Shown here in pieces: positions 1-10,308 of a stretch of 11,883 bases of DNA. The DNA is taken from positions 1-11,883 of the IMG/VR virus record IMGVR_UViG_3300048672_001143; one strand, written 5' to 3'. The stretch's first letter is position 1. Each line of letters opens with the position of its first letter. The notes beneath the pieces are model-generated. The model searched no databases, was not told where the DNA came from, and saw only the letters and a list, made by a program, of their open reading frames with translations. The position numbers and the translations under genes were made by a program. The DNA comes from a virus. Lineage: Duplodnaviria; Heunggongvirae; Uroviricota; Caudoviricetes.

Positions 1-249
1 TACTGTTCCAACAGATAAAGTAGAAGCCGAACCTGTGAGGGCTGTCGTAAAAGCCGTACTTGTTGAAACATTTCCTGCAGATAAAGTAGAAGCTGAACCT
101 GCGAGAGCTTCCGAATTATTGGCTACGATTGTTCCAGCAGATAAAGTAGAAGCTGAACCAGTAATAGAAAGCGTTACGTTCGGACTTCCCCCACTTGGCT
201 CAGGTAAAGTGGATAGTGGCTGTGTAGATAGTGGCGTGAAGCCTAACAC
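1..249 (-). CDS. Virion/fibre-associated repeat protein, N-terminal part (runs off window edge; absent from the ORF track)
   Basis: Manual translation from GTG at 249-247, 4 nt after the upstream TAA: MLGFTPLSTQPLSTLPEPSGGSPNVTLSITGSASTLSAGTIVANNSEALAGSASTLSAGNVSTSTAFTTALTGSASTLSVGTV, open to position 1. Ser/Thr/Gly/Ala-rich with three (I/L)xGSASTLSxG repeats. Confidence 0.8.
   Translation of the reverse strand, partial: MLGFTPLSTQPLSTLPEPSGGSPNVTLSITGSASTLSAGTIVANNSEALAGSASTLSAGNVSTSTAFTTALTGSASTLSVGTV
12..159. repeat. Three 22-nt direct repeats cagataaagtagaagc(c/t)gaacc
   Basis: Copies at 12-33, 78-99 and 138-159 (spacing 66 and 60 nt, both multiples of 3); they encode GSASTLS on the minus strand. 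Confidence 0.95.
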
Positions 250-5312: not shown

Positions 5313-5339
5313 AGCTTAATTTTCCTAAGTTTGCAGTTA

Positions 5340-5360
5340 AAAACCGTTCGTTTCGGTTTT
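5340..5360 (-). terminator. Weak hairpin/possible terminator aaaaccg-N7-cggtttt
   Basis: 7-bp inverted repeat 5340-5346/5354-5360 with only 3 GC pairs, followed by T's on the minus strand. Confidence 0.25.
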
Positions 5361-5410
5361 GAATTCTTTGGGGTACCCGTTTAACACATCGAGTTTATGC
5401 TTTACAGATT

Positions 5411-5442
5411 GGCTACGGCAGGAAGCTGGGATATCCGTAGCC
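5411..5442. repeat. 8-bp inverted repeat ggctacgg-N16-ccgtagcc
   Basis: Perfect inverted repeat 5411-5418/5435-5442 in the gap between the beta-helix gene and the holin; no adjacent U-tract. Confidence 0.7.
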
Positions 5443-5491
5443 GTTACCGATAAAATAAATACTAGCACAAATTTTAACATGTGTGGCCCCC

Positions 5492-6745
5492 TTATGTGGT
5501 TATATCCGCAGGAAAATTATCGATCAATCCGTTAAAAGAATTACCTATTTTCCTGTTCGTTGCTGAATTTGTTACGTGACTAGTTTCTTTTTGTACGGCT
5601 ACTTTTGTCTTACCTGTAGGACTAGTAAAAGTGTTATTTATAAGGCTTATGTCGGAAGATGTTCCGTTAGAACCCAAATCTATGGCTATTGAAGACCCCG
5701 CATTACCGGTTCCACAATCCGATAGCTCGTTATTGCTTATAGTTAAAGTGTCTACACTCGCTATTACTAAACCTTTTCCGCTTATACTCCCGTTAGTCTG
5801 AAGTTTATTGCCCGTAAAAAGAACATTGTATACCGTGGACGTATTCGAGAATCCTATGAAATTACTATCCGTGCAATTCGATATGTTGTTTCCGGTTACC
5901 GCTACGCCAGAACCTCCAATTACAGTAATACCTTTTACGCTATCGGATACGTTATTATTAGCCGCGGTATATGTATAGCCTACTATACTGGCATTGGCTC
6001 CTCTGGCATCATAATAGTTTAAAGCGACCTGACAATTGCTTAAAATATTGTCTTTAATGGTTATATTGCTCGGCTCTTGGGTAAACGCTGCATTTTTATA
6101 AAACACCGTTATAGCCCCGACGTTCCCCCCTATATCTAGCAGAGTGTTATTCCGTATTGTTATGTTTTTATTTATATCGGTAACCAGATTTGGTTCTATG
6201 TCGATAGCTCCCGGCATATCGTTTCTGGAACACCTTGTAAATATACAATTTTTTACTGTTAATCCGTCTACCGTTATGCTAGAAACAGCATTGCGGTTTT
6301 GTTTATTTACCCCGTCAAACAGGCATGAATCTACTACTACGTCCTGATTCGTCGTGCCAGCTGAATTAGAACCTAAATACACCCCATCCCCTTTCCATCC
6401 CGTAAACTGTACCGCCTGAAAAAGAACATTTCTGGCATTATTCGTAAATACTAGGTGCGTATGCTCTTCAAATATCGGGGCATCTGAAAATCCTCGGATC
6501 TGTAGGGACTTGAAAGTAACTCCAGAGGCTCCGACTATATTTATAGAATTTGTTCCGGCTACTGCAGTGGGTGATTGCTTAATAATAGTCGCGCTGCCAT
6601 CTCCGAAGATAGTTACGGATTTAGAAATTAAAAGTTTATCGACTATATAAACTCCGGCGGGTACATATATTAACGAGCCGGTATTTATAGCGCTGTAAAA
6701 AGCTAGTGTGGAATCCGTTGTTCCAGTTCCATCCGCTTTAAACAT
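5492..6745 (-). CDS. Pectate-lyase-like right-handed beta-helix protein (tailspike/depolymerase-like), 417 aa from first ATG
   Basis: FKADGTGTTDSTLAF...GSLIYVPAGVYIV opening motif of Pectate_lyase_3-type domains; many Asn/Ile/Val beta-helix turns (ITIRNNTL, ITIKDNIL, VAVTGNNISNC, LTISNNEL); GDG and AIDIEPN motifs. True start uncertain (see findings). Confidence 0.85.
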   Translation of the reverse strand: MFKADGTGTTDSTLAFYSAINTGSLIYVPAGVYIVDKLLISKSVTIFGDGSATIIKQSPTAVAGTNSINIVGASGVTFKSLQIRGFSDAPIFEEHTHLVFTNNARNVLFQAVQFTGWKGDGVYLGSNSAGTTNQDVVVDSCLFDGVNKQNRNAVSSITVDGLTVKNCIFTRCSRNDMPGAIDIEPNLVTDINKNITIRNNTLLDIGGNVGAITVFYKNAAFTQEPSNITIKDNILSNCQVALNYYDARGANASIVGYTYTAANNNVSDSVKGITVIGGSGVAVTGNNISNCTDSNFIGFSNTSTVYNVLFTGNKLQTNGSISGKGLVIASVDTLTISNNELSDCGTGNAGSSIAIDLGSNGTSSDISLINNTFTSPTGKTKVAVQKETSHVTNSATNRKIGNSFNGLIDNFPADITT

Positions 6746-6775: not shown

Positions 6776-7633
6776 TCATCCATAGAATAGCGTGACCGTC
6801 ATATGCTCTAAAGTTATGTAATCCGAAGCGGTATTCAGGGTTAACTGCACGGTTATATTTTTATCTACCGTAGAGTCTTGCGTCCCTGTGACAGGGACCG
6901 TTGTTACTGGACCTGCATTTCCTGGAGAACCTGTAGCAAAGGCTATCTGCTTAGTTAAACTGTTATTGTTTCGCACTCTGTGCGTTTCTTCGATTGCGAC
7001 CGCGGTAGCTCCAGGTGCTGGATTTTTATACGAAAAAGTGCCATATAGAAATGACATTCTTTTAGTGCCTGCCGAAGCATTACACCAGCTCATGTGGTAG
7101 GTATCAAAGTACCCATTTTCGCTAAGTGATCCCCCTGGAAGCGTATAACTGACCGTTGGTATAGTAAAGGTACTTGTTTGCGTGGTCAGAGTACCACTGG
7201 CAGTTTGGCTGACTGCGCTTACACACGTAAACGTATTGGCATCTACCATTTGAAAATCATCATAGAGCCCTGCCGCAATAGCAGCTCCAGTTGTTACGGT
7301 AGCGCCCCCGATATAAACACGTTTCCCATTATGCACGGTGGCTGGAATATTGTGCGCCGTTGAGGTCACCGTAATTAGATTTCCTGTTTGTGAATACGTT
7401 GCCGCATTCGCCGCCGCCAGGGATGGTAGCACAATACCAAAATACTGGTTAAAAACTATCGTGGGGGCCGCAGTCCACCTAGACCCATCACTAGTAAACA
7501 ATACCGATCCAACTTGGCATTTCCAAGGTCTACCGCCGTAATAATCCGCTGGAGGGCGTTCAGCTATCGTAGCGAATACCGGATCTTTATCTAATAAGAC
7601 GGGTGTGCTGCCATAAGGTAATGTGTCTGCCAT
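6776..7633 (-). CDS. Putative virion fibre/receptor-binding protein 2 (285 aa) with shared N-terminal module
   Basis: First 41 aa are 40/41 identical to the 553-aa gene; the YSQTGNLITVTSTAH...V..DANTFT segment resembles the FCCH-like beta repeat of phage tail proteins; Thr/Ser-rich beta C-terminus; ends in TGA in frame with the next ORF. Confidence 0.7.
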   Translation of the reverse strand: MADTLPYGSTPVLLDKDPVFATIAERPPADYYGGRPWKCQVGSVLFTSDGSRWTAAPTIVFNQYFGIVLPSLAAANAATYSQTGNLITVTSTAHNIPATVHNGKRVYIGGATVTTGAAIAAGLYDDFQMVDANTFTCVSAVSQTASGTLTTQTSTFTIPTVSYTLPGGSLSENGYFDTYHMSWCNASAGTKRMSFLYGTFSYKNPAPGATAVAIEETHRVRNNNSLTKQIAFATGSPGNAGPVTTVPVTGTQDSTVDKNITVQLTLNTASDYITLEHMTVTLFYG

Positions 7634-7677
7634 AGTAGTTCTTTTATGCCTCTAAAAATAAGTATCGTCTATCTCGT
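7512..7677. repeat. 166-bp direct repeat, copy 1
   Basis: 161/166 identical to 9219-9384 (offset 1707); covers the intergenic region and codons 1-41. Confidence 0.97.
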
Positions 7678-7678
7678 A

Positions 7679-9340
7679 TTACGCTGGTTTCTGCCAAGGG
7701 AATTTCGCAAGAAGCCATTTTCTAGCCCGCATAAAAATATATTTCGGCGTTACTACTGAACGCCCCAAATAAGTAATATCGGCGGTTTCGAGCAGCTTGT
7801 AAGCTTGCGTGTAAGGTGCTGGCGTTACATATAAACCCGGTGCAGGTGCTGGCGCTTCGGTAACAAAATAATAAAGGTTTGTGTCAAGTGGGTTATAAAC
7901 CAATGACCTTACGGTCTCGCCTGTTTCAGGATGCCCCCATAGCTGGGTGTTCATATTAAACCCGTTAGGATTTCCCGATACCTGTGACATCATTAAATGT
8001 TTTCCGCGCTTATCTCCGCACCCATATACACCAGTAGGCGCTCCCTTTGCTGGGTTTAACTCGATAATATCAACAGGGTAGTTATAAGCGTATGGCGTGG
8101 CGTTATTTGTCCATCGCGCCCAAGTGTCAGTTGCAATTGCAGTGCAGCGCCATAGGCCAACATCAGCCCCATAACCATTATCACCGACAGAAGCCCACAG
8201 TTTTACTGTCTGGTCTGAAAAAAATGAATGTATGTGCCTAGCTCCTGTCATTTGCTTTGATAGCGTCCATGTTGGCGTTCCAGACAAGGGGCCGTATTTA
8301 AATATTCTAGGTGGGGCTGGGTCTGCTGGGTCTGTAGTTAGATCAGCAGCGGCGCTATACTCACCCCAAACTAAGTAATCTTGAAATAGGGCGATACCAT
8401 AAGGGCGCGTCGTTGCTAATGACCTTTTTAAGCCAGTCTGTATTGGGCATGTAATATCTGTCCAGGTTGCCGAAGATGTTAGGTCTGATGATCTATAAAT
8501 ACTTGTATCTGATCGCAACAAATAGAGCTGGTTATTATACTCAAGCAGGTCTGATATGACGTATACACTAAGTGCAGGAGCGGTCATTAAGTCGGTCCAA
8601 GTGTCGCCATCAGTCGATACGGTTATCTTTGAGTTGGATGCTCTCAAACCATAGGCTTTTGATGATGTGTAGCCGGACAGTGCTGCGCCCACTACTGATA
8701 TGCCGGTAAAATCGACCGGGGCGAAATTATAGGGTGTATCCAAGTTTACAGCATGTCCAACAAGTTTAGGATGGCTGCTTGTTGGAGTGATGCTTGTAAT
8801 CAAGGTATTCATAGGCATTATTGACGTTCTAAAGAACCCGCCATACCCCTGAACAAATGTCATTGTCGCCGTAGTGCCATTGCATGACACAGCATAATAA
8901 TATGTTCCTGGGTCTAAAGTCGTAGGAACATGGGAGAACTCAAATGGCCCAGCAATAGGAACTTCTCGCTGCTCAGTGGTCACAAGCATATTCATTGTGT
9001 TGTCAAAGATAGCTATTTCGATTAGCTTAGATGCTTGAGTTGTTCCTATATATCCAGAAACTCTGTTTAATGTGATTGTTTCGCTTACAACAAAAGGGGC
9101 CAATCTAATATCATTTATTACCGTATCTATCGGGCTTTCGCCTTTTGTCTCAATTGTAATTAGCCCAGAATTTAGCGCGCGCCATGCAATACCGTTACTG
9201 GTATACATCGTATTATCTACTTGGCATTTCCAAGGTCTACCGCCGTAATAATCCGCTGGAGGGCGTTCAGCTATCGTAGCGAATACCGGATCTTTGTCCA
9301 ATAAAGCGGGTGTGCTTCCATAAGGTAATGTGTCTGCCAT
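7679..9340 (-). CDS. Putative receptor-binding protein 1 (553 aa): shared N-module + beta-sandwich + BNR/Asp-box beta-propeller
   Basis: Asp-box-like motifs STDGDTWTDL and SSDLTSSATWTDI, plus GEY and RHIHSFFSD...LWASVGD motifs of BNR/sialidase-like propellers; middle domain TLDPGTYYYAV is beta-sandwich-like. Confidence 0.7.
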   Translation of the reverse strand: MADTLPYGSTPALLDKDPVFATIAERPPADYYGGRPWKCQVDNTMYTSNGIAWRALNSGLITIETKGESPIDTVINDIRLAPFVVSETITLNRVSGYIGTTQASKLIEIAIFDNTMNMLVTTEQREVPIAGPFEFSHVPTTLDPGTYYYAVSCNGTTATMTFVQGYGGFFRTSIMPMNTLITSITPTSSHPKLVGHAVNLDTPYNFAPVDFTGISVVGAALSGYTSSKAYGLRASNSKITVSTDGDTWTDLMTAPALSVYVISDLLEYNNQLYLLRSDTSIYRSSDLTSSATWTDITCPIQTGLKRSLATTRPYGIALFQDYLVWGEYSAAADLTTDPADPAPPRIFKYGPLSGTPTWTLSKQMTGARHIHSFFSDQTVKLWASVGDNGYGADVGLWRCTAIATDTWARWTNNATPYAYNYPVDIIELNPAKGAPTGVYGCGDKRGKHLMMSQVSGNPNGFNMNTQLWGHPETGETVRSLVYNPLDTNLYYFVTEAPAPAPGLYVTPAPYTQAYKLLETADITYLGRSVVTPKYIFMRARKWLLAKFPWQKPA

Positions 9341-9384
9341 AGTAGTTCTTTTATGCCTCTAAAAATAAGTATCGTCTATCTCGT
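9219..9384. repeat. 166-bp direct repeat, copy 2
   Basis: Partner of 7512-7677; the five mismatches correspond to copy-1 positions 7589, 7592, 7598, 7599 and 7610. Confidence 0.97.
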
Positions 9385-9385
9385 G

Positions 9386-9619
9386 TTATTCTTGATCATA
9401 CACGCCGCTCAAGAGATTAAATTTAAACTGTTCAATAAGAAAGAGTATCCGCGCTGGGTCACCCGTATGTGAAGCTATCCAGTCATCCCCGTTATGGCAT
9501 CGGCCTATTACGACAACTTGCTGAAGCTCGCCCATTGCGCCGGCTAAAACGTCATCCGGATCAATATCCAGATTTCGATTAACGGGAAAATGGATTATAT
9601 TATCTTTCATCGCTAGCAC
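9386..9619 (-). CDS. Small conserved phage protein (74-77 aa; ATG at 9610 is a plausible alternative start)
   Basis: NIIHFP...LDIDPDDVLAGA...VVVIG...WIAS...ILFLIEQFK pattern resembles a common phage hypothetical family; abuts or overlaps the adaptor TAG. Confidence 0.7.
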   Translation of the reverse strand: MLAMKDNIIHFPVNRNLDIDPDDVLAGAMGELQQVVVIGRCHNGDDWIASHTGDPARILFLIEQFKFNLLSGVYDQE

Positions 9620-10308
9620 ACAGTCATTTCAAAAGGGACGTCCGTCTGCCGCTCACGAATTACCACAGCAGGCAAACGTGGGCCAAACCGTTCTTCGAAC
9701 ATCGCGAATTCTTTTTCCGACTTTTTTTCGTTAAAAGTATCCGTATCTCGCTTTAAATACGCTAATGCGGTAATGCCATATATCAAATCTGGGTGCCATA
9801 TCTCATCTATCTCGGGAACATCTCCGTCGGATTCCAAAAGAACGGGCAACCGTCGTACGTCTAGATACGCGGTATCCGCTTTGTTCGGGGTGCCCATAAA
9901 AGTAATGGTTCTTACGAAAATCCCGGAGTCCTCTCCGGTTCCAGCCTGTGTTTGATCGAGTGCGTAAGCAAAAGGTGTGCCCGTAAAGTCCATTCGGGTG
10001 GAATAGTACTGCTGTTGCTGCCGAAAACTGACTTCTTTGAGAAGATTACTTGGTTGAGACGCTAAATAAACCGATTTAACGGCCAAAAAACCACTAGGAA
10101 GTGCATATTTTGACCTCCACGTCAGGTCTACGTTTTGTGTGAAAACTATTGGAATATCGTCTTGGACGACCAAATTGGCGCGTAAGCATGCATCTCGAAG
10201 GGTATCGTTGGTGTAGTCAAGAATTTCTTCATCCGACCACAGGTATTCGGGGTTTTTATCGTCTAGCCGAGATCTAACTCTGCGGCGTATGTCTGCGAGT
10301 GTTAGCAC
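9613..10308 (-). CDS. Head-tail adaptor/connector protein (231 aa)
   Basis: MLTLADIRRRVRSRLDD...YLWSDEEILDYTND...YALP...GTP..Y...PEIDEIWHPDLIYGITALAYLKRD: helical-bundle adaptor signature; lies downstream of the capsid genes; GAGG RBS before GTG. Confidence 0.8.
   Translation of the reverse strand: MLTLADIRRRVRSRLDDKNPEYLWSDEEILDYTNDTLRDACLRANLVVQDDIPIVFTQNVDLTWRSKYALPSGFLAVKSVYLASQPSNLLKEVSFRQQQQYYSTRMDFTGTPFAYALDQTQAGTGEDSGIFVRTITFMGTPNKADTAYLDVRRLPVLLESDGDVPEIDEIWHPDLIYGITALAYLKRDTDTFNEKKSEKEFAMFEERFGPRLPAVVIRERQTDVPFEMTVC

Follow-up and report, generated by a model that had tools for sequence, protein, structure and literature searches.

We analyzed the first 11.9 kb (11,883 nucleotides (nt), hereafter the window) of the 87,848-bp IMG/VR virus record IMGVR_UViG_3300048672_001143, a phage of the Caudoviricetes. 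The subject is a 170-nt direct repeat at the start of two neighboring genes, which encode proteins of 553 and 285 amino acids (aa). We consider it fairly probable (roughly 0.65) that two virion-appendage genes lie here in tandem with the repeat as their common 5′ end, and that both are modular cassettes shuffled by homologous recombination. Each gene would be built from a leader, an N-terminal module of about 55 aa and an exchangeable head. The evidence for this reading includes three findings. The leader and the first 41 codons are nearly identical in the two genes, the head of the 553-aa protein was found at 90.8% nt identity behind another N-terminus in another kind of phage, and the genes sit in a slot that holds none, one or three genes across the lineage. 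The elements of the two genes are as follows.

7679..9340, minus strand: 553-aa appendage gene (labelled RBP1, for receptor-binding protein (RBP)), with the N-terminal module, a beta-sandwich resembling a carbohydrate-binding module (CBM; about aa 60-200) and a 7-bladed beta-propeller (about aa 202-553) in the model
9341..9384, minus strand: leader copy A, 44 nt, non-coding, identical to copy B in the alignment
9218..9340, minus strand: N-terminal module copy A, codons 1-41 of the 553-aa gene, from the alignment
9176..9217, minus strand: codons 42-55 of the 553-aa gene, which complete the module in diverged form, with an Asp-box-like S-x-N-G-x-x-W turn, not homogenized with copy B
7679..9170, minus strand: head of the 553-aa gene, codon ~57 to the stop, 90.8% nt identity to locus L031 (blastn)
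6776..7633, minus strand: 285-aa appendage gene (labelled RBP2), with the N-terminal module and a jelly-roll beta-sandwich body in the model, ending at a TGA
7634..7677, minus strand: leader copy B, 44 nt, from the alignment
7511..7633, minus strand: N-terminal module copy B, codons 1-41 of the 285-aa gene, from the alignment
7589..7610, minus strand: 22-nt patch that holds all five internal differences between the aligned copies

The repeat and the module that it encodes

A repeat search of the window placed the two copies at 7512-7681 and 9219-9388, with 164 of the 170 nt identical (96%) and a start-to-start spacing of 1707 nt. The remaining direct repeats in the window were 20-38 nt long with 66-87% identity, and the 170-nt repeat far exceeds chance expectation. 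In each copy, the non-coding leader (44 nt) is followed by the first 41 codons of the gene downstream. A preliminary description, made from the letters of the window alone, had counted 161/166 identical positions over 7512-7677, and our alignment gave the same count. It had also stated that the copies start 1 nt after the TAA of two different genes. Both stops were found on the minus strand: copy A begins one base past the TAA (9388-9386) of a 77-aa gene, and copy B one base past the TAA (7681-7679) of the 553-aa gene. The lone base separating the upstream TAA from the repeat is itself the sixth of the six mismatches. The five internal ones all fall inside the patch at 7589-7610 (codons 8-15) and its counterpart, and they amount to three synonymous changes and one two-base Ala/Val codon. 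This codon is residue 12, the A/V alternative of the N-terminal peptide quoted earlier, which we found in both copies. The flanks of the patch are mismatch-free over 67 nt (the whole leader included) and 77 nt.

The leader occurred only twice across the 87.8-kb genome. Its 44 nt contained no sigma-70-like promoter or terminator, their RNA folding was no better than that of shuffled sequences (z -0.2 and +1.2), and they had no match in Rfam. An AGAGG is present, but its distance of 16 nt to the ATG suits a ribosome-binding site poorly. With no promoter, terminator, fold, Rfam match or third genomic copy, we rejected the leader as a regulatory element.

The N-termini of the 553-aa and 285-aa proteins could be aligned over 55 residues, with 40 of the first 41 identical and then only 5 of 14. 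At the DNA level, the identity between the copies was lost after codon 41. Because the weak homology of the two proteins reaches residue 55, the structural module would be about 55 aa long, with the 41-codon edge as a recombination breakpoint within it. Beyond codon 41, copy B is orthologous to the module in L022, an independent ENA contig, whereas copy A is not; for this reason copy B is taken as the resident copy. The 553-aa gene has kept its own older, diverged residues 42-55, and its leader and codons 1-41 have evidently been overwritten or co-duplicated in recent times. The orthologous modules of the window and L022 showed only ~78% DNA identity. As the leader and the synonymous sites are identical between the copies while these orthologues have reached ~78%, a DNA-level recombination event is indicated, not protein-level selection. 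Either unequal crossing-over (duplication) or gene conversion could have made the leader and the first 41 codons of both genes identical in recent times.

Confident AlphaFold2 models of both proteins were built from homologue alignments. Residues 1-11 or 1-15 had a predicted local distance difference test score (pLDDT) below 50 in both models, and residues 37-55 formed a beta-hairpin and a strand. The module would thus begin with a short peptide that is disordered and continue as a beta-hairpin/Asp-box motif. The motif consensus is roughly x-R/K-P-x-A-x3-G-x-G-x5-9-S-D/N-G-x2-W and occupies ~40-55 aa before both heads. With a hidden Markov model (HMM) of the motif, we found it directly before the body in six propeller-family proteins and in most jelly-roll-family proteins, and no further gene of this genome was matched. 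The motif family thus stands before bodies of both kinds in many uncultured phages. It was absent from some family members, and in P0019, P0046, P0009 and P0053 it followed a long fiber-like extension. One jelly-roll-family protein, P0027 (L027:8001-8951), carried two consecutive copies of the motif, an internal duplication of the module.

Database searches with the module returned little. No Pfam family was found for the N-terminal segments, even at E up to 10, and no PHROG model either. Mtd_N (0.86) was among the sub-threshold feature-based Atlas leads for the N-terminal segment and was not adopted. Profiles of the N-terminal module, the 285-aa family and the 553-aa family found no credible chain in the PDB, where the inclusion of SU10 gp12 is unconfirmed. 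When residues 1-55 were compared by phmmer with 1.84 billion cluster representatives, no more than two matches were obtained, both weak and to internal repeats; this negative is weaker than it looks, as the module-bearing proteins P0004 and P0016, which a different search recovered, are probably hidden behind 50%-cluster representatives. The module alignment recovered no locus from IMG/VR and JGI metagenome contigs. Cultured relatives were sought in 50,697 GenBank phage records, where neither megablast with the region nor tblastn with the two proteins gave a match; the adaptor encoded upstream of the block was at most 30% identical to those of Acidovorax phage AP1 and Pseudomonas F116-like phages.

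Two unrelated heads and their exchange

The model of the 553-aa protein had a pLDDT of 81. Its propeller reached a VIA Z of ~21 to generic 7-bladed propellers, which VIA ranked equal to sialidases, and the Foldseek matches included sialidases, galactose oxidase and Ycf48. No Pfam BNR match was obtained at E<0.01. Of the "BNR propeller" proposed earlier, the model thus shows a propeller, a generic 7-bladed one, and membership in the BNR family was not confirmed. The sandwich domain matched the cyanophage A4 capsid chain 9jwb_Z in Foldseek (TM score 0.56 by target, 170 columns). We take this chain of 201 residues to be the auxiliary cement protein gp25, although the chain assignment is unverified. 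The family of the 553-aa protein comprises P0003-P0014 and P0053, and its C-terminus ends as in the family consensus. Directly upstream of two propeller-family genes, P0005 and P0010, lies a conserved 106-aa open reading frame (ORF) in two unrelated contigs (L026:7681-8001 and L035:3-323; 39% identical between the loci). It is absent from the window and may encode a dedicated partner or chaperone.

The 285-aa protein was modelled as a jelly-roll sandwich (pLDDT 82), with VIA Z up to 7.5 to TNF/C1q-, CBM- and PRD1-P5-like folds, which is not decisive. Its BFVD matches were uncharacterized phage proteins and, partially, tailspike C-terminal domains. It had 38 homologues, and in all 34 aligned members the C-terminus ended at the position of the TGA. 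The preliminary description had given this protein an "FCCH-like/beta-helix" body, which does not agree with the jelly roll of the model; the beta-helix belongs to the next ORF.

5492..6745, minus strand: 417-aa right-handed beta-helix ORF, pectate-lyase-like (Pfam Beta_helix and Pect-lyase), without the N-terminal module

This ORF lies in frame with the 285-aa gene, behind the one TGA and ten codons. Its counterpart in L023 is a 633-aa beta-helix gene (37% identical), which has its own start two bases after a 285-aa-family gene. The motif HMM matched none of 111 beta-helix homologues.

The same N-terminal element therefore stands here on structurally unrelated bodies, and we found this pattern again on other contigs. 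In P0004 (542 aa, on a JGI contig), residues 1-53 are 91% identical to the 285-aa protein, and past residue ~53 follows a propeller-type body ~50% identical to the 553-aa protein. P0016 carries the module on a jelly-roll body. That the N-terminus is separable from the body, as had been suggested, is thus borne out at other loci.

The clearest exchange was found in L031. Its protein P0053 carries the head of the 553-aa protein, with 90.8% nt identity over 1492 nt (blastn), a sharp 5′ boundary at codon ~57-61 and a 3′ end at the stop codon. The N-terminus of P0053 differs; it is longer and has its own diverged copy of the motif. Its gene belongs to another kind of phage and is flanked there by terminase-side genes and by a portal-like gene. 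Two phages that differ in other respects thus share a head by horizontal transfer, joined on at the anchor/head boundary, and this case agrees with the earlier expectation that foreign C-terminal domains can be captured in frame. The fixed crossover point proposed with it was not found. The junctions lie at codons 41, ~53 (P0004) and ~57-61 (L031), and they cluster at the module/head boundary without being fixed. We suggest that heads pass between phages by homologous recombination at or near this boundary.

The variable slot was defined by comparison with relatives. The genes that mark it are listed here.

9613..10308, minus strand: head-tail adaptor gene, 231 aa (Pfam SU10_adaptor, E 9e-18; phrog_399)
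9386..9619, minus strand: 77-aa gene (phrog_11040), whose stop TAA (9388-9386) is the left edge of the slot
5337..5480, minus strand: truncated remnant (47 aa) of a small secreted HNH-like gene, the right edge of the slot

The appendage block of 3.9 kb sits in the slot after the SU10-type adaptor and the 77-aa gene, and the left edge of repeat copy A is also the left edge of the slot. The adaptor gene upstream is kept in all relatives, with 67-97% identity in 16 IMG/VR loci, and neither the N-terminal module nor either appendage protein was found within 10 kb in these 16 loci. In five of the relatives (L003-L007; adaptor 74-97% identical) the slot is empty, and a holin gene follows within a few hundred bases after the adaptor and 77-aa genes. 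For L003 and L004, whose flanks show 84-90% nt identity, the homology runs exactly to the 77-aa stop codon and sets in again at ~5426, within the small secreted gene. L022 shows a third state: the end of the adaptor gene, a 74-aa gene, a 31-nt diverged leader, P0016 (an 87%-identical homologue of the 285-aa protein) and the small secreted gene follow each other, with no propeller gene and no beta-helix behind the 285-aa-type gene. The slot occupancy across the lineage is therefore none, one or three genes. The small secreted gene is present in L003 and L022 and has its full length in L004 (112 aa). In the 47-aa remnant of the window (5337-5480), the signal-peptide part has been replaced and the catalytic part lost; this truncation is probably collateral damage from the insertion of the block.

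Interpretation and alternative explanations

In the reading that we favor, the phage is an uncultured podophage of the SU10-adaptor type, and its 3.9-kb accessory block fills a variable slot with the adaptor/77-aa genes on one side and the lysis genes on the other. Through the shared N-terminus, the two heads would be held at one kind of site on the particle. The virions would then carry two or three specificities: the propeller, the lectin-like jelly roll and perhaps a depolymerase of the beta-helix type. The adaptor is a candidate docking site, because in phage SU10 a fiber encoded beside the adaptor gene binds the adaptor via its N-termini (PMC9509320). The docking site may instead be on the capsid, a live alternative suggested by the gene positions in L032 and L034 and by the N-terminal anchor and CBM design of A4 gp25 (PMC12002296). 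The folds (CBM-like sandwich, propeller and jelly roll) and the late-gene context fit receptor-binding or decoration proteins, with matches that are generic. The disordered residues 1-14 could be the real docking peptide, by analogy with the 7-29-residue peptides of K1-5/SP6 and KP32/KP34 (PMC6872550). Since both copies share their register from the ATG, a deletion or duplication would leave intact genes, and the repeat would permit the occasional loss or gain of the 1707-nt unit as a by-product, not as a regulated switch.

Several points weigh against this reading. The tandem order was seen in one assembled contig, and no second tandem module array was found in 24 other loci (16 relatives and 8 homologue loci). 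The words "appendage" and "docking" are drawn from fold, context and analogy. In L032 and L034 the jelly-roll-family genes lie between the capsid and connector/adaptor genes, and the site may thus be on the capsid. Moreover, the motif may be a neck before the head and not the docking element itself, because in several homologues it follows a long fiber-like N-terminal extension.

The preliminary description had gone further and called the locus a recombinational host-range switch. In a dedicated switch, the repeat would serve frequent, selected deletion, duplication or capture of heads, and phage stocks would be a programmed mixture of genotypes. We consider this quite unlikely. It is true that the repeats are direct, run in the same register to the ATG and stand right after stop codons, so every recombination product would be an intact gene. 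The predicted outcome, in which crossing-over deletes exactly 1707 nt and leaves the 285-aa gene intact, follows from the repeat geometry, and the one-gene contig L022 has the architecture expected of a deletion product. However, L022 is only ~70-80% identical in DNA, which makes it a diverged relative and not a fresh deletion product. The junction codons also vary by event (41, ~53 and ~57), and no other tandem array of the module was found in the 16 relatives and 8 further loci. Recombination at a repeat of 170 nt is expected to occur only occasionally. The repeat search found no notable inverted repeat flanking the genes that could serve as crossover sites, and no recombinase was found in the Pfam/PHROG scans of the larger ORFs of the window, with the rest of the genome scanned in part. 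In that part we observed a 446-aa exonuclease at genome positions 41391-42731 (L028:18391-19731; phrog_69, E 5e-62). It could belong to a recombination system, which, being phage-borne, would favor exchange at short repeats like this one. Because no recombinase, inverted sites or regulatory signal in the leader were found, "switch" is too strong a word.

A further possibility is that the proteins are capsid decoration proteins or head fibers and not tail RBPs, with the N-terminus as a capsid anchor as in A4 gp25. Besides L032 (an HK97-like siphophage or prophage; 7001-7858) and L034 (an SU10-like phage; 7001-7852), where the gene stands between those for the major capsid and the connector/adaptor, a place that head decoration proteins occupy more typically than tail fibers do, L015 has a motif-bearing ORF just before the adaptor. 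The sandwich match to 9jwb_Z (unverified as gp25) and the dispensability of the block in relatives point in the same direction. On the other hand, the CBM match is to a common fold, and the partial BFVD matches point to tailspike C-terminal domains. In L023, a family member ends the tail/ejection gene cluster and is followed by the beta-helix depolymerase, and the genes of the window come after the adaptor, which is the position of the adaptor-bound fiber in SU10 (PMC9509320). On balance we judge capsid decoration unlikely. An assembly artefact, in which two one-cassette strain variants were joined through the shared 170 nt, is very improbable. The tandem order in one contig only would allow it, and related variants are clearly in the sample, with L022 and L031 coming from sister ENA assemblies. 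However, the junction from the 553-aa stop to the leader needs a real molecule with the leader and module behind the 553-aa gene, and the five internal mismatches limit the exact shared stretches to at most 77 nt, which ordinary reads can bridge; a chimeric join is unlikely for these two reasons. The record also closes on itself via a 127-bp terminal overlap, with a completeness estimate of 100%.

The shuffled-cassette reading can be extended. The ~40-55-aa motif might be a widespread "universal plug" that mounts unrelated heads on very different phages, in which case an array of homogenized plugs would evolve in concert and would often shed and gain heads. We regard this extension as doubtful. 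If true, the plug would serve SU10-like podophages, HK97-like siphophages and others, and a fast turnover of the array would mean a standing heterogeneity of host range in natural populations.

Comparison with known systems and neighboring genes

As a rule, T7/K1F, K1-5/SP6 and Klebsiella phages keep the N-terminal anchor or peptide conserved and exchange the heads horizontally (PMC6872550). The present locus follows this familiar modularity of phage RBPs, in a lineage and in protein families without a cultured or annotated representative. One likeness is to the dual tailspikes of K1-5, K1E and SP6, which are also encoded by adjacent genes with different heads and a short conserved N-terminal element each, and whose heads are swapped as cassettes among related phages, which expands the host spectrum (PMC6872550). 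In those phages, however, two N-terminal peptides (7 and 11 residues) bind two sites on a known adapter, gp37, whereas here both genes share the same 41 residues and an identical leader, and docking would be to a site proposed by analogy. The heads here are a propeller and a jelly roll, not tailspikes, and our analysis identified no adapter that has a T4gp10-like domain. T7 gp17/K1F gp17 and the Klebsiella KP32, KP34 and JD001 groups likewise keep the N-terminus constant and swap the C-termini; L031 and P0004 show the same pattern, but without sequence similarity to those anchors.

The gene position close behind an SU10-type adaptor gene resembles that of the SU10 long tail fiber gp12 next to its adaptor gp11. 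However, no PDB sequence matched the 553-aa profile, which argues against sequence similarity to solved fibers, and the block here is accessory, being absent from relatives with 97%-identical adaptors. As for A4 gp25, a capsid auxiliary cement protein that forms a trimer of an N-terminal anchor and a CBM (PMC12002296), the likeness lies in a short N-terminal anchor followed by a carbohydrate-binding sandwich; no sequence similarity was found, and the proteins here have further or other domains.

Invertible host-range loci differ more. In Mu (G/Gin) and P1 (C/Cin), the N-terminal part stays constant and the C-terminal host-range part alternates; a dedicated invertase makes the switch by site-specific inversion of the segment that lies between inverted sites. 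Here, in contrast, the repeats run in the same direction, the two genes, each complete, can be co-expressed, and there is no recombinase at the locus. There is no evidence for a programmed switch, and the term in its Mu/P1 sense does not apply.

The host range of phages is set largely by exchangeable receptor-binding parts. Here a variable slot, a recently moved head and a repeat that records recombination could be read from sequence in an uncultured lineage, and unusually clearly, with a within-genome repeat, slot occupancies of none, one and three, and a 91%-identical head in another phage. The analysis adds an unannotated family of N-terminal motifs and two uncharacterized head families (propeller and jelly roll), none of them represented among cultured phages. 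They could help to annotate phages from metagenomes and, provided that docking is confirmed, could offer a natural plug-and-play scaffold for laboratory studies of phages and hosts.

The real genes in the region of the repeat are all on the minus strand. In this direction, the major capsid gene (just beyond the window) is followed by four small genes, the adaptor gene, the 77-aa gene, the 553-aa and 285-aa genes, the 417-aa beta-helix ORF, the 47-aa remnant, a holin-like gene, a GH46-fold lysin gene and spanin-like genes. The 77-aa gene occurs in relatives without the cassettes, and L031 has a 33%-identical version. A role of its protein as a dedicated partner of the cassettes was rejected, since cassette-free relatives have it too and, in L031, its gene does not neighbor the head gene.

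Downstream of the lysis genes, at 254-1168 on the minus strand, lies a gene for a 304-aa Gly/Ala-rich protein with a weak PHROG match to "tail fiber assembly" (phrog_863, E 3e-9); the lysis genes are thus embedded in the structural gene cluster. At the very start of the window (6-169), three copies of a 38-nt unit were found 60-66 nt apart with 79-87% identity. They lie inside an open-ended minus-strand ORF, where they encode a repeated GSASTLSAG peptide, and this ORF looks like part of a repetitive fiber-like protein.

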